A stretch of 64,000 nucleotides of DNA from Gemmatimonadales bacterium (GCA_035763805.1 DASUAL010000077.1:9461-73460), one strand, 5' to 3'; positions 12,567-59,853 are shown, counted from the stretch's first letter. Program-made: numbers and translations. The notes: generated by a model not told the origin, from the letters alone.

Positions 12567-12684
12567 AATGCGGAGTGCGGAATGTGGAATGCGGAATTGA
12601 CCGCGCGGTCGTCCTGCCTGTTGGCGGGCTCTCGGCATCGACCCCGCCCTGCAATTCCGCACTCCGCATTCCGCACTCCGCATT
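12567..12684. repeat. Inverted heptamer-array hairpin (AATGCGG)n...(CCGCATT)n
   Basis: 33-bp arms at 12567-12599 and 12652-12684, 31/33 complementary, 52-nt loop. Confidence 0.9.
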
Positions 12685-33585: not shown

Positions 33586-34038
33586 TTGCGCCTGCGCGAG
33601 TTCTTTTCCGAAGACGGCATCAACCTCCAGCTGCAGAGCACCGCCAAGGACGAGGTGCTGAAGGAGCTGGTCGGGCTGCTCAAGCTCGACGACAAGGCCG
33701 AGCAGACTCTCGTGAAGATGCTCAAGCGGCGCGAGACACTCGGTTCGACCGGTATCGGCCAGCACATCGCGATCCCGCACTGTCGGGCGCTCGCCGTGAA
33801 CCGCCTCCGGGTCGCCTTCGGCCGCAAGCTCCAGGGCATCGACTTCAACGCCATCGACGGCAAGCCCGTCCATTATTTCTTCCTCATCGTGGCGCCTCCA
33901 CTCGAGGTTTCCAACCAGTATCTCCCCGTCCTGGGCAAGATCGCGCAGTTCGCCAAAGAGGCGGACGTGCCCGATCGGCTCGCCAGGTTGAATACCGCGC
34001 AGGAGTTGTTGCAGCTGCTGGAAGAGAAGAACATCTGA
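33586..34038 (+). CDS. PTS EIIA (PtsN-like) protein
   Basis: RRETLGSTGIGQHIAIPHCR, FNAIDGKPVHYFFLIVAP. TTG start. Confidence 0.9.
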   Translation: MRLREFFSEDGINLQLQSTAKDEVLKELVGLLKLDDKAEQTLVKMLKRRETLGSTGIGQHIAIPHCRALAVNRLRVAFGRKLQGIDFNAIDGKPVHYFFLIVAPPLEVSNQYLPVLGKIAQFAKEADVPDRLARLNTAQELLQLLEEKNI

Positions 34039-34076
34039 AGGCGTTGCCGGTTGCCGGAGAGGCGTTGCCGATTGCC
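34039..34076. repeat. Left heptamer arm of the four-helix-bundle cassette
   Basis: AGG-CGTTGCC-GGTTGCC-GGAGAGG-CGTTGCC-GATTGCC, beginning immediately after the PTS IIA stop. Confidence 0.8.
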
Positions 34077-34147
34077 TTGCCGACAAGTGATACAGGCGCG
34101 CGTCCGAATGATGATGCTCTGCCGAGATTTCTTTCTAGCTTTGCCAC

Positions 34148-34543
34148 GTGGGCGATTTCCGAAAGCTCGTCGCCTGGCAGGAGGCAAAGCGACTGGCCGT
34201 CCTGTCTCGTGATGCCGTCCAGTCGCTGCCGCGGGCAGAGGTTTTCGCGCTTGGCGCGCAATGGCGCCGTGCGGCTTACAGCATTGCCCTGAACATCGCT
34301 GAGGGAGCGACTCAGGCCAGCCCACGCCAGTTCAGGCGTTACTTGGAAATCGCGAAGGGCTCCCTGGACGAGCTCCAGGCGGTGCTGGAGCTCGCTGAGG
34401 CCCTGGGCTACCTCTCCGGCGCCAGACTCAGCGAACTCCGTCTGGCCCGCACCCACTGCGCCCGACTGGTTACGGCCCTAGCCGGGAGCATTTCACCTGG
34501 CAGAGACGCCTCTCCCGGCAACGCCCCTTCCGACAACCGGTAA
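34148..34543 (+). CDS. Four helix bundle protein (23S rRNA IVP / Avd-like family)
   Basis: FRKLVAWQEA, LPRAEVFAL..Q.RRAAYSIALNIAEG, FRRYLEIAKGSLDEL, LGYL. Confidence 0.92.
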   Translation: MGDFRKLVAWQEAKRLAVLSRDAVQSLPRAEVFALGAQWRRAAYSIALNIAEGATQASPRQFRRYLEIAKGSLDELQAVLELAEALGYLSGARLSELRLARTHCARLVTALAGSISPGRDASPGNAPSDNR

Positions 34544-34548
34544 CGCCT
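34499..34548. repeat. Right heptamer arm (inverted) of the four-helix-bundle cassette
   Basis: ACG-CCTCTCC-C-GGCAACG-CCCCTTCC-GACAACC-GGTAACG-CCT. The terminal 17 nt match the reverse complement of the left arm at 15/17. Ends at the guaA stop. Confidence 0.8.
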
Positions 34549-36107
34549 CACTCCCACTCGATGGTCGCCGGCGGCTTGGAACTGACGTCGTACACCACGC
34601 GATTCACCCCGCGGACCTCATTGATGATCCGGCTGCTGATCCGCCCCAGCATCTCCGGCGGGAACGGAAACCAATCCGCCGTCATGCCGTCGCGGCTGGT
34701 CACGGCACGCAGGGCAACCACGTGATCATAGGTCCGCCCATCTCCCATCACGCCGACCGACTTGATGGGGAGGAGCACCGCGAACGCCTGCCAGATCTGG
34801 TCGTACAACCCCGCGGAGCGGATCTCCTCGATGTAGATGGCATCCACCCGGCGCAGCAGGTGGAGCCGCTCCTCCGTGACCGGGCCCAGCACCCGGATCG
34901 CCAGGCCTGGACCGGGGAACGGATGACGCCCGACGATCTCTTCGGGGAGGCCCAGCTCGCGCCCCACCTGGCGCACCTCGTCTTTGAACAGTTCGCGCAG
35001 CGGCTCGATCAGCGTCCACGGCAGATCGGGTCGCAGCCCTCCGACATTGTGGTGCGTCTTGATGGTGACCGACGGGCCGCCGAATGGCGACGCGGATTCG
35101 ATGACGTCCGGATAGAGCGTCCCCTGCACCAGAAACCCGACGTCGCCCGCGACCTGCCGGGCCGCGTCCTCGAACACGTCGATGAACGTGTGCCCGATGC
35201 GGCGCCGTTTCTCCTCGGGATCCTCGACACCCGACAGCTCGGCGAGGAACCGCTCGCCCGCATCCACCACCCGGAGGTCGATGCCGAGGTGTGCCCGGAA
35301 CGTCCGCTCAACCTGGTCGCGCTCGTTGAGGCGCAGCAGTCCGTGGTCCACAAACAGGCACGTGAGCCGGCTGCCGATGGCGCGGTGCACCAGCGCCGCG
35401 GCGACGCCCGAGTCCACACCGCCCGACAGGCCGCAGATCGCGTGCTTGGCCGGACCCACCAGGGCCCGGATACGCTCCACCTCCTGCGCGATGAAGTGAC
35501 CCGGGGTCCAATCGGGCGTACAGCCGCAGATCGCGAACAGGAAGTTGTGAAGGATCTCGCCGCCCCGCGGGGTGTGGGCGACCTCGGGGTGAAACAGGAC
35601 GCCGAATAGCGGCTTCGACTCGTGCTGCATCGCCGCCACCGGAGCGTTGGCGCTCGAGGCCAGCACGCGGAACCCGGGCGGCGGCGTGTCGATCCTGTCG
35701 CCGTGACTCGCCCACACCTGGATGCAGGTCTGCGGCTCGAATCCCGCGAACAGCCCTCCCGCCGTCGCTTCGCGGATCGCGACGTCGGCGCGGCCGTACT
35801 CGCGCTCGGGCGACGGCGTCACCCTGCCACCCGCCAGGTGCGCCACGAGCTGCATGCCGTAGCAGATGCCGAACACGGGAATCCCCAGGTCGAGGATCTC
35901 CGGGTCCGCGGTGGGCGCGCCGCGGTCGAAGACGGAGTTCGGCCCGCCCGAGAGAATGATGCCGCGCGGCGCGAACTGCCTGATGAACGCGAGCTCGGTC
36001 CCCCGCGCGGCAGGATGAATCTCGCAGTACACGTGCGCCTCGCGCACTCGGCGTGCGATCAGCTGGGTGTACTGCGACCCATAGTCGAGAATGAGGATGC
36101 GGTTCAC
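34548..36107 (-). CDS. guaA: GMP synthase (glutamine-hydrolysing)
   Basis: [66 protein letters not shown] at 36107. Confidence 0.97.
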
Positions 36108-37366
36108 GCCCGGTACCACGTGGTGGGCTCGAGGATCTCCCCCCGTAGCAGGTCGTCGAGCGTCTCGCGTTGCCGCGCTACGTAATAGCGGTCGCCCTCC
36201 ACGAGCACCTCGGGCGGCCGCGGTCGCTGGTTGTAGGTCGAGCTCATCACGAATCCGTAGGCGCCGGTGCCGAGCACCGCCAAGTACTCCCCCGGTTCCA
36301 CGGGCGGCAGCCTGCGATCGAGCGCCAGGAAGTCGCCGGATTCGCAGATCGGGCCCACGACATTCACCATCTCCTCGGGTCCCTCCACCCCCTTGCCGTC
36401 CTTGAGCGGCACGATCTCGTGATGCGCGTTGTAGTGGCTCGGGCGCACGAAATCGGTCATCCCGGCATCCACCACTACGAAGTCCTTGCCTCCCGCGTGC
36501 TTGCGGTACAGCACCCGGGTGAGCAGCACGCCCGCATTGGCGACGAGGTAGCGCCCCGGCTCGCACAGCAGCGAGAGCCCTGCCTGGCTCAGCGGCGGCG
36601 CTACCGCGTCGGCGAACGCCTTGGGACTCGGCGCCCGCTCGTTGTGGTAGCGAACTCCCAGCCCGCCCCCGACGTCGATTGCTTCGATCGTGGCGATGCC
36701 GGAGGCGCGCAGGGCCGTCACCAGCTCCAACAGCTTGATGGTCCCCCGGCGGTAGGGCTCCACGTCCGTGATCTGCGAGCCGATGTGCATCGCGAGCCCC
36801 CGCAACACGAGCACCGGCTCGGCCGCGATGCGCTGCGCGACCGCGACCACTTCGTCGTAGGGGACGCCGAACTTCGCGGTCTTCTCTCCGGTCTTGGTGT
36901 AGGGGTGTGTCTCGGTGGCGACGTCGGGGTTCACGCGGATGCCGAGACTCGCCCGTTTCTTGAGCTGGCGGGCGACGGCGACGACGACGTCCAGCTCGGC
37001 GGGCGACTCGATGTTGAGAAACCCCACCCCGGTGCGCAACGCTTCCTCGAGCTCGGGCATGGTCTTGCCCACGCCGGAGAACACGATCGACCCTGCATCG
37101 AAGCCGGCGGCGAGCGCGCGTCGTAGCTCGCCCACCGACACGATATCGGCGCCCGCGCCCAGCTGCTTGAGCACCTTGAGGACGCCGATGTTGCCGTTCG
37201 CCTTGACCGAGTAGCAGATGCGGTGAGGCACGGCCTGCAACGCGTCGGACAGGGCGTGATACTGGGCCCGGATGAGATTCGCGCTGTAGACGTATACCGG
37301 CGTGCCCACGCGCTCCGCGATGCCGCGGAGCAGCGCGGGGTCGAAGCCTAGTACGCCTGCCCCCAC
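36104..37366 (-). CDS. lysA: Diaminopimelate decarboxylase
   Basis: [56 protein letters not shown] at 37366 with GGAGG. Confidence 0.95.
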
Positions 37367-58643: not shown

Positions 58644-59756
58644 TCACAGGAGCGTCTTCGGATCCGTGTACGCGAGACCGAACGCCTCGGCCACGGCGGG
58701 ATAGACGACCTTCCCCTCGATCACGTTGAGCCCGAGAAACAGCGCGGGATCGTCCCTGCAGGCGTTCTTCCAGCCGTTCCGGGCGAGCTTCTTGGCGTAC
58801 GGGAACGTAGCGTTGGTCAGGCCGAGGGTCGAGGTGCGCGGCACGCCGCCCGGCATGTTCGCCACGGCGTAATGGATGATGCCGTCCACGACATACGTCG
58901 GGTTCTCGTGCGTCGTGGGTCTGATGGTCTCGATGCACCCGCCCTGGTCCACGGCGACGTCCACGACCACCGAGCCCGGCTTCATGAGCTTCAGGTCGTC
59001 GCGCTTCACGAGCTTCGGCGCCTTGGCGCCGGGCAGTAGCACCGCCCCGATGACGACATCGGCCTTGCGCAGCTGCTCGAGCAGATTGTGGCGGTTGGAG
59101 TAGAGGAGATCGACATTCGGCGGGAGTACATCGGCGAGGTAGCGCAGGCGGTCGAGCGAGAGGTCGAGCAGCGTGACGCGCGCCCCCAGACCAGCCGCCA
59201 TCTTGGCGGCGTTGGCGCCGACGACCCCGCCACCCAGGATGAGCACCTCGGCGGGGAGCACGCCGGGCACGCCGCCCAACAGGATGCCGCTCCCTCCGTA
59301 CACCTTCTCCAGGTATTTGGCACCCTCTTGCACCGCCATGCGCCCGGCCACCTCGCTCATCGGCGTGAGCAGCGGCAGCTCGCCCGACGGCAACTGCACC
59401 GTCTCGTAGGCGATCGCGATGATCCGGGACTCGATGACGGCCTGCGTGAGCGCTTCGGACGCGGCGAAGTGGAAGTAGGTGAATACGACCTGCCCTTTGC
59501 GCATGCACGGCCACTCGGGCTCGATCGGCTCCTTCACCTTGACGATCATCTCGGCCCTGGCCCAGACGTCCGCCGCCTTGGGAACGAGCGTCGCGCCGAC
59601 CGCCTGGTAGGCGTCGTCGGGAAAGCCCGATCCCACCCCCGCGCCCTGCTCGACCAGCACGATGTGCCCGTCGCCGCGTAGCGACTCCGCCCCCGCCGGC
59701 ACCAGCGCCACGCGATGCTCGGCGGTCTTGATCTCTTTCGGCACCCCGACGATCAT
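58644..59756 (-). CDS. ald: Alanine dehydrogenase
   Basis: [52 protein letters not shown]. Confidence 0.97.
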
Positions 59757-59763
59757 GAGCACC

Positions 59764-59849
59764 CCGTTGTACGTCGTACGTTGTACGTCACACGAGGCGC
59801 GTCATCCGACGTCGCATCGTACAACGGAGCGTCGTAGCGTCGCATAACG
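59764..59849. repeat. Degenerate inverted heptamer-array hairpin (CGTTGTA)n...(TACAACG)
   Basis: CGTTGTA-CGTCGTA-CGTTGTA-CGTCACA. Perfect 10-bp IR CCGTTGTACG/CGTACAACGG (59764-73 / 59818-27). Confidence 0.65.
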
Positions 59850-59853
59850 CCTC

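Follow-up and report, generated by a model that had tools for sequence, protein, structure and literature searches.

An apparently mobile four-helix-bundle gene cassette bounded by inverted heptamer arrays at gene junctions of Gemmatimonadales

Results

A four-helix-bundle gene module fills the gap between two convergent genes

The window analyzed here (the whole 64,000-nt stretch of DNA, to which all coordinates refer) belongs to a 3.31-Mb soil metagenome-assembled genome (MAG) of the order Gemmatimonadales, with 69% GC and 98% completeness. A PTS-IIA gene and guaA converge within it, and the gap between their stop codons corresponds exactly to a 510-bp module (34039-34548) consisting of a left arm, a leader, a gene for a 131-residue four-helix-bundle (4HB) protein, and a right arm (Table 1). 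The TGA stop codon of the PTS-IIA gene (34036-38) adjoins the left arm, and the guaA stop codon, which reads TCA on the plus strand (34548-50), adjoins the right arm. The right arm covers the last ~12 codons of the 4HB ORF together with one base of the guaA stop codon. An initial annotation of the DNA had described just such an arrangement, with inverted heptamer arms filling the PTS IIA/guaA gap exactly and a 4HB ORF running into the right one, and our analysis confirms it.

The left arm is built on a 21-nt repeat composed of three CGTTGCC-like heptamers, which gives it a 7-nt sub-period. Positions 34039-34070 pair with 34516-34548 at 29 of 32 positions, and additional pairings exist in shifted registers (34056-65 with 34506-15 and 34059-74 with 34534-49). 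The resulting arm score of 44.5 is equalled at 0.2% of 1500 random genomic places. When folded as RNA (516 nt), the module is predicted to close on a terminal stem of ~32 bp with z = -4.45, on which the MFE and centroid structures agree. An Rfam search of 33900-34700 found no RNA family, a consensus scan of 33950-34650 found no intrinsic terminator, and the PADLOC defence models gave no match.

Table 1 Features of the module, its neighbors, and the gene-less hairpins of the window.
Feature	Position	Strand	Evidence or remarks
PTS EIIA-2 gene	33586..34038	+	PF00359, E 9e-30; ORF listing
Left arm	34039..34086	+	Tandem CGTTGCC-type units, G-rich on the gene strand
Leader	34087..34147 (61 nt)	+	Promoter-like signals; no Shine-Dalgarno
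Leader signal GAATGATGAT	34106-34115	+	Position profile of 77 modules, control genes, sequence
Cargo absent from same-genus G002	34116..34504	+	Comparison of the host genome with G002
-10-like TAGCTT	34136-34141	+	6 nt ahead of the GTG start
4HB gene, 131 aa (S23p / 23S_rRNA_IVP family)	34148..34543	+	PF05635, TIGR02436
Right arm	34506..34548	+	Matches the left arm in inverse complement; gene strand C-rich
guaA (GMP synthase)	34548..36110	-	ORF listing; tblastn of the C-terminus in relatives
Gene-less hairpin, AATGCGG family	12567-12608/12644-12684		37/41 pairs; 4 nt from a stop codon
Gene-less hairpin, AATGCGG family, degenerate left arm	49306-49339/49376-49409		27/34 pairs; 0 nt after a stop
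Gene-less hairpin, GGTGTCA family	50327-50357/50368-50398		25/31 pairs; 2 nt after a stop
Tandem CGTYGTA heptamers, doubtful hairpin	59764..59850		16/18 core pairs; score 21, under the random median

The encoded protein matches PF05635 with an E value of 4.5e-26 (91.6 bits against a cut-off of 33.8) over profile positions 1-104 of 106, and TIGR02436, "four helix bundle protein", with an E value of 3e-25 (88.6 bits against a cut-off of 24). It also matches XCC0516 (PDB 2GSC), a Xanthomonas protein whose solved structure is pentameric, with an E value of 1.2e-13. Its match to the PHROG Avd family is weak and distant (E 1.7e-5), and the NCBIfam Avd model scores below its cut-off (E 0.0016; 18.7 bits against 80). 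The dN/dS values of 0.05-0.17, obtained with nearly saturated synonymous sites, indicate strong purifying selection on the protein. The C-terminal tail that the right arm encodes is unconserved.

Inverted tandem arrays accompany 4HB genes throughout the order

Nine PF05635 genes are present in the host genome, and every one of them is flanked by inverted tandem arrays, each with a different arm unit. Against a null of random places, seven of the nine score above the 99th percentile and all nine above the 94th. We extended the analysis to 78 4HB genes from 21 genomes of the order, the nine included, where 62 (79%) score above the 99th percentile of the null distribution and 68 (87%) above the 95th; the link between 4HB genes and heptamer arms that had been proposed from one locus is thereby borne out in the genome and in the order. 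Several of the sub-threshold genes in this sample look armed on inspection. The layout is regular, with typically 60-90 nt between the left arm and the start codon and a right arm that starts at or just inside the stop codon. The proposed rule of a 7-nt period holds in part: 7 or 14 nt is usual in the order sample, and periods of 8, 9, 10, 13, and 15 nt occur too.

The host genome contains 301 period-7 arrays and about 60 hairpins that enclose no gene, mostly with arms of 30-35 nt, so that gene-less hairpins outnumber loaded ones by about 7 to 1. Their units fall into the families AATGCGG, ATTGCGG, GGGATGC, GGGAGCR, GGGAGGC, and GGTGTCA. The AATGCGG family is the largest, with about 30 hairpins, and its members have the variant units AGTGCGG and AATGTGG in common, which recur at certain positions. 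Of 62 inverted pairs, 28 are located between -12 and +20 nt of a stop codon according to a crude local frame call. Some hairpins are found within operons. The initial annotation had listed four empty hairpins in the window, of which those at 12567, 49306, and 50329 are solid; the fourth, at 59764, is weak and precedes a start codon by about 10 nt instead of lying directly 3′ of a stop. No T-run was found at any of the four (12567, 49306, 50327, and 59764). Since the hairpins lack a U-tract, their identity as intrinsic terminators was ruled out.

4HB copy number ranges from 0 to 13 per genome within one family-level group. All 13 genomes with at least 10 arrays carry a 4HB gene, and the seven genomes that have none contain at most six arrays each. 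This genome-level association is suggestive, with p about 0.05.

One junction occurs in loaded, empty, inverted, and bare states

We compared the PTS-IIA locus in 30 genomes of the order, including that of the host, and in two additional MAGs (L031 and L032). A homologous 4HB gene occupies the junction in six or seven of the 30 (the host, G001, G015, G020, G031, and G040), the gene in G020 being degraded, and the PTS|guaA junction is loaded in both L031 and L032 as well. Five genomes have gene-less hairpins here with the units ATTGCGG, CAGTCRT, GGGGAGC, GGGGTTA, and CACAGAG, and in eight the junction is bare, with 1-32 nt separating the stop codons. No target-site duplication is visible at the bare-versus-filled junctions. 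The repeated occupation of one junction by different unit families could reflect turnover in place and not repeated insertion. At sites that are loaded in relatives, the host genome is itself loaded, bare, or empty, often with another unit.

The same-genus genome G002, whose flanks at the junction are 92-94% identical to those of the host, retains arms of the host type and the first 44 nt of the leader. It lacks 34116-34504, a segment that includes the -10-like box and nearly the whole ORF and whose ends form a 7-bp inverted repeat, CTCTGCC (34117-23) and GGCAGAG (34499-505). Its left arm is also shorter by three heptamers (21 nt). Because homologous loaded cassettes hold the junction in other genera, the G002 allele is a deletion of the cargo and not an unfilled target. 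By this comparison, it is a direct example of a loaded cassette turned into an "empty" hairpin, so this same-genus pair supplies both the loaded and empty alleles at an orthologous site and the cargo loss leaving an empty hairpin that the initial annotation had predicted.

Orientation varies too. L031 and L032 have the same arm unit, GGCGTTGCC, and a protein 73-75% identical to that of the host, with the gene flipped relative to PTS and guaA; the junction copies of G001 and G040 are likewise flipped. Recombination between the two inverted arms would be expected to produce such in-place flips. Contigs from soil metagenomes contain the intact module in three runs; they yielded no clean empty or inverted allele and break at the repeats.

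Gene and arms behave as one evolutionary unit

The lineage of the junction cassette recurs at a different site in the genomes L033 and L034, where the protein is 67-79% identical and the arms, with the same unit GGCGTTGYCGG, are up to ~140 nt long. The host genome has only a short unrelated array at that site. G031 carries six paralogous 4HB copies at six sites, two pairs of which have common long arms. Across 2278 module pairs, arm similarity in gene orientation climbs with protein identity: common arms are found in four of six different-site pairs and six of seven same-site pairs at protein identities of at least 70%, in 4-30% of pairs between 50 and 70%, and in none of 2157 pairs below 50%. 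The reverse-complement control never reached the threshold. Because arm similarity tracks protein identity, we conclude that the arms travel with the gene and then drift.

The comparison of the host with G002 locates the boundaries of this unit. Flanking genes are 92-100% identical between the two genomes, and identity across the four cassettes that they have in common drops to 27-77% for arms and leader and to 60-90% for the ORF, the break coming at the outer edge of the arms. The arms are thus shown, by comparison of genomes, to be the edges of an evolutionary unit in which gene and arms are inherited together. The spread of identities among the four cassettes is not clock-like, suggesting that cassettes were exchanged for diverged alleles or re-seeded repeatedly; alternatively, the divergence inside the modules could stem from a mutation rate that is elevated locally.

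These comparative data show a cassette that has apparently been gained at new junctions, multiplied in some genomes, inverted in place, and emptied. The proposal that the gene-arm unit is mobile on evolutionary time is thereby supported, with evidence from new sites, arm-sharing paralogues, in-place flips, and the bare, empty, and loaded states of the junction. Were the loci instead old and purely vertical, with arrays turned over by slippage and intramolecular gene conversion and patchiness produced by loss only, one could account for the observations that same-site copies are each other's closest relatives, that the arm unit drifts with divergence, and that unit number shifts by whole heptamers, as in the 21-nt difference between the host and G002. 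Immobility is nonetheless most improbable, as it conflicts with the presence of one lineage with the same arms at two unrelated junctions, the six paralogues at six sites in G031, the range from 0 to 13 copies within one family-level group, and the non-clock-like divergence of four modules, from 60% to 90% protein identity, in a single genome pair.

Cassettes have an internal promoter-like signal and a fixed strand polarity

Alignment of 77 modules on their start codons reveals an A/T-rich block at positions -11 to -6 that resembles TAnnnT (TAGCTT here) and a second block at -46 to -36 that is A/T-rich and then reads GGT[AT]. No purine-rich Shine-Dalgarno sequence was found in this alignment. 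The A/T block is absent from 281 control genes of the host genome, and an SD-like core occurs in 10% of modules versus 27% of controls. A sigma-70 consensus scan at the module gave no match. The internal promoter-like signal and the lack of a Shine-Dalgarno sequence together suggest a leaderless mRNA, in line with the leaderless gene of the initial annotation, for which the support is a sequence signal. As the promoter-like signal lies past the left arm, the cassette's own transcript would therefore lack that arm.

The arms also have a consistent polarity. Whichever strand is read, a G-rich arm lies 5′ and a C-rich arm 3′ in 57 of the 59 empty hairpins with a skew (p = 6e-15), and the same order holds for 46 of the 50 skewed cassettes (p = 4e-10). 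The promoter-like signal and the strand polarity are new regularities of these cassettes.

That loaded and empty hairpins have an identical polarity would fit hairpins that are host elements in their own right, acting as factor-dependent terminators, 3′-end stabilizers, or insulators, with the 4HB gene a separate mobile gene that lands in their loops as it would in those of rRNA helices. The position of 28 of 62 hairpins near a stop codon (-12 to +20 nt), the roughly sevenfold excess of gene-less over loaded hairpins, and the finding that the difference between G002 and the host falls wholly within the loop, where the cargo has its own 7-bp inverted ends, point the same way. We nevertheless judge this division of labor unlikely. 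The arms follow the protein lineage even across sites, which is unexpected if genes hop into unrelated hairpins, and the loaded state is ancestral at the junction (host, G001, G015, G020, L031, and L032), so that G002 represents a deletion. The missing U-tract and the location of some hairpins inside operons also argue against it.

RNase III is undetected in the host and 12 relatives

The RNase III domain PF14622 has no match in the 98%-complete host genome, PF00636 has none in 13 genomes (the host and 12 relatives, with completeness reaching 100% in some), and the signature PS00517 is absent from the six-frame translation. Rho is present in the host. Mismatches in the arms of stop-adjacent hairpins show no strand bias of G·U (26 versus 27).

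These results bear on the classical mechanism of 23S rRNA intervening sequences (IVSs), which, if operating outside rRNA, would have the arms pair in a read-through transcript and RNase III cut the stem to release a gene-bearing loop RNA, with selection for RNA pairing maintaining the symmetry of the arms. The layout of the module is that of the Coxiella and Leptospira 23S IVSs (PMC4990558), and a ~32-bp stem closes the RNA structure predicted for it (z = -4.45). This mechanism is still very unlikely here, given that no RNase III domain was detected in the 13 genomes and no PROSITE signature in the six-frame translation, that the promoter-like signal follows the left arm, and that mismatch G·U is not biased to the transcribed strand. 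The arms are probably not an RNase III-cut RNA stem because the enzyme is undetected and the cassette's own transcript would lack a complete left arm, and the looping-out of the gene as RNA, put forward in the initial annotation, is correspondingly weakened. The module is best described as an IVS-like cassette outside rRNA that is apparently RNase III-independent.

Discussion

A self-contained cassette with arms acting mainly on DNA

We favor, at somewhat better than even confidence for the explanation as a whole, a self-contained cassette whose arms work mainly at the DNA level and whose 4HB protein reads its own repeats. Such a cassette would comprise a G-rich arm, a promoter-bearing leader of ~75 nt, a 4HB gene whose mRNA is probably leaderless, and, at the stop codon, an inverted arm rich in C. 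The arms would act mainly as DNA, either as hairpins or as inverted-repeat ends, which would explain inversion, the concerted evolution of the arms, deletion of the cargo, and the sharp edges of the cassette. The polarity from 5′ G-rich to 3′ C-rich means that transcripts starting inside the cassette would carry at their 3′ end a C-rich array left unpaired, where Rho could plausibly enter. In transcripts that read through from outside, the G-rich arm would come first and the C-rich arm would be folded against it, which may insulate the neighboring genes. Finally, the 4HB pentamer most likely binds the repeats of its own arms, for autoregulation, propagation, or both. This last is the least supported step, and the notion of a pentamer reading the units of its own arms, though appealing, falls short of proof.

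We also considered a fixed pentamer "ruler". Arms cluster at 30-35 nt, but periods of 7-15 nt fit poorly with a fixed footprint per subunit, and with arrays longer than 100 nt (L033 and G013) this led us to reject the idea.

If the protein does recognize its own unit, it could further drive the copying of both cassettes and gene-less hairpins, in an autonomous/non-autonomous system like that of REPs and RAYTs. The AATGCGG family has the unit of a cassette (C129) that retains this unit in three genera at only 60-69% protein identity, and the single 4HB gene of G029 has a right arm of five TTCCCGC units that corresponds to the abundant GGGAAGC family of that genome. The restriction of large array sets to 4HB-bearing genomes (13 of 13 with at least 10 arrays, against at most six arrays in the seven 4HB-free genomes) and the common variant units (AGTGCGG and AATGTGG) at recurring positions within a family are also as such copying would predict. 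We consider this a serious candidate that is nonetheless doubtful, since the genome-level association reaches a p of only about 0.05, the abundant families of G013 (GGTGAGC) and G003 (GGGYAGC) match no resident 4HB arm, the ATTGCGG, GGGATGC, and GGGAGCG families have no loaded copy in the host genome, and neither a catalytic motif in the 4HB protein nor a target-site duplication is seen. The strict version, in which each array family derives from a resident "master copy", was rejected, as array families match resident arms in two of four genomes (the host and G029, and not G013 or G003).

A broader form of the preferred reading, in which the 4HB protein reads its own repeats, can be proposed tentatively, and its two parts jointly strike us as possible while falling well short of probable. 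PF05635 pentamers would be sequence-specific readers of tandem repeats that, with the arms, constitute a transposase-less mobile system acting on DNA and seeding gene-less heptamer hairpins, and the excess of heptamers in many bacterial genomes would stem from such seeding. If so, the 23S IVSs would merely be the copies that landed in rRNA and were made tolerable there by RNase III. The persistence of cassettes in RNase III-free Gemmatimonadales would then imply that RNA excision is not the core mechanism.

S23p/4HB proteins are among the most abundant uncharacterized small-protein families in bacteria, and their function has been sought since the first 23S intervening sequences. The present locus bears on that function and on the origin of bacterial heptamer repeats. 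It offers a compact system: the cassette is sharp-edged, a single junction provides natural alleles that are loaded, empty, flipped, or bare, the strand polarity is conserved, and the host clade seems to lack the textbook RNase III route. Should the 4HB protein read its own repeats, it would represent a new kind of partnership between a protein and a repeat and possibly a new mechanism of mobility; should it not, the cassettes would still be a clear instance of fixed junctions that host hypervariable guest genes.

Comparison with known systems

A full-text search of the literature did not link 4HB genes outside rRNA to inverted repeat arms; mentions of the family are otherwise made in passing.

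MITEs that are processed as RNA hairpins, such as the Correia elements of Neisseria, resemble the module in being small, in having inverted ends at gene junctions, and in their capacity to carry promoters and to form long RNA stems. They differ in having conserved terminal inverted repeats, target-site duplications, and a parental transposase family, none of which is seen for the module. An origin as a MITE or IS was rejected on these grounds, as the nine copies in the host genome have nine different arms and no duplication; the G031 paralogues with common arms are an exception.

The Avd proteins of diversity-generating retroelements (DGRs) have a distantly related fold, a pentameric four-helix bundle that works beside nucleic-acid repeats or hairpins. 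Here, RVT_1 has no match in the whole genome, which thus contains no reverse transcriptase, and there is no TR/VR pair. Membership in the DGRs was ruled out because RVT_1 is missing and the Avd model scores below its cut-off, and retro-mobility is unlikely given the absence of a reverse transcriptase.

REP/REPIN-RAYT systems share with the hairpins described here a large number of short extragenic palindromes at gene ends, lineage-specific expansion of families, and a single candidate partner gene with its own repeats on either side. In contrast to RAYTs, the 4HB protein lacks any known catalytic fold, HUH included, and its arms are tandem arrays whose unit varies by cassette. The host genome does contain three RAYT-like (Y1_Tnp) genes, flanked by classical REPs (CCCCGGGG- and GTAG-type) and not by heptamer arrays. 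Since the RAYT flanks carry other palindromes, REP propagation by these RAYTs was ruled out for the heptamer hairpins, which agrees with the earlier view that the system has no recognizable transposase.

The closest relatives by protein family are the 23S rRNA IVSs of Coxiella burnetii (helix 45), Leptospira, Brucella, and Xanthomonas, which have S23p/PF05635 proteins in common with the module. In Coxiella and Leptospira, the IVS contains an S23p ORF, a 28-bp stem, variable heptameric repeats, and a mapped RNase III cut, and it has been proposed to be a present or former mobile element (Warrier et al. 2016, PMC4990558). The likeness extends to an ORF placed inside terminal inverted repeats, a stem of about 30 bp, and variable-number heptamers in the stem region, and a long stem encloses the module as well. 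Unlike an IVS inserted in helix 25 or 45 of 23S rRNA, the module lies between protein-coding genes and has its own promoter-like signal. Purifying selection on its protein is strong; the ORF of Coxiella, by contrast, is in decay and probably not translated. Excision by RNase III, which defines the IVSs, finds no counterpart in a host order whose RNase III is undetectable.

The arrays themselves have parallels in Xanthomonas and Nostoc, where inverted heptamer arrays of GGGAATC and GGGGAYT have been read as G-quadruplex formers, with 70-75 "convergent" pairs per Xanthomonas genome and no protein partner named (Rehm et al. 2015, PMC4692102). A G-quadruplex would require at least four consecutive units with a G-run of at least three. 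The units of the module (CGTTGCC and GGTTGCC) contain GG at most and not GGG, which makes its formation here unlikely; the GGGATGC and GGGAGCG families would qualify. The Xanthomonas and Nostoc arrays are like those of Gemmatimonadales in their tandem 7-nt units, their number of units (4-5), and their mostly intergenic position near gene ends, and the "convergent" pairs of Xanthomonas have the same G-rich-first polarity. The difference is that the arrays described here are tied to a gene family.

Gene-less repeats in the window and among relatives

The gene-less hairpins and arrays of this order fall into unit families, each sharing one short tandem unit such as AATGCGG. Within the window, the AATGCGG hairpin at 12567-12684 lies 4 nt past a minus-strand gene's stop codon, with no accompanying T-run. 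At the weak hairpin at 59764, the repeat lies approximately 10 nt upstream of the start codon (59755-59757) of a minus-strand gene whose N-terminus we take to be alanine-dehydrogenase-like. The dominant unit family differs among relatives, being GGTGAGC in G013, where arrays reach approximately 15 units, GGGAAGC in G029, and GGGYAGC in G003. Within this one order, per-genome counts run from 0 to over 100, which indicates that the unit families expanded in lineage-specific bursts.

The window's own genome may also contain repeat families of other periods. Across the whole genome, GCGG recurs at period 10 (GCGG-N6 x4) in 50 occurrences and at period 8 in 25, compared with 7-8 occurrences at periods 6 and 9.

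A second repeat system with RAYT genes

RAYT/REP constitutes an independent, second repeat system in the same genome, with three genes resembling REP-associated Y1 transposases (RAYTs). The REPs (short extragenic palindromes) that flank them are of the types ACCCCGGGG...CCCCGGGGT, or CACTGCGCTTCAAGCGCAGTGCTAC, and REPs of this kind are clustered in tandem at C129:8700-9150.

RAYT-like genes on contigs C86, C81, and C129 of the window's own genome (GCA_035763805.1)
Feature	Coordinates	Location	Flanks
RAYT-like Y1 transposase gene	C86:1537-1878	outside window	classical REP palindromes
RAYT-like Y1 transposase gene	C81:8613-8948	outside window	classical REP palindromes
RAYT-like Y1 transposase gene	C129:8409-8675	outside window	classical REP palindromes

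RNase III in Gemmatimonadales

Profile searches yielded zero RNase III matches, both with PF14622 in the window's own genome and with PF00636 in 13 Gemmatimonadales genomes (this one and 12 relatives, several of the set being 99-100% complete), and the PS00517 motif was not found in six-frame translation. Classical RNase III may be missing from the order, an absence also reported for Deinococcus.

Cassettes of G031

In the relative G031, the cassettes carrying four-helix-bundle genes (loci L077, L079, L080, L081, and L011) have long inverted arms of 50-90 nt that are mostly non-periodic and partly common to paralogues. These arms resemble conventional terminal inverted repeats, and the G031 loci may represent another evolutionary state of the same cassette.
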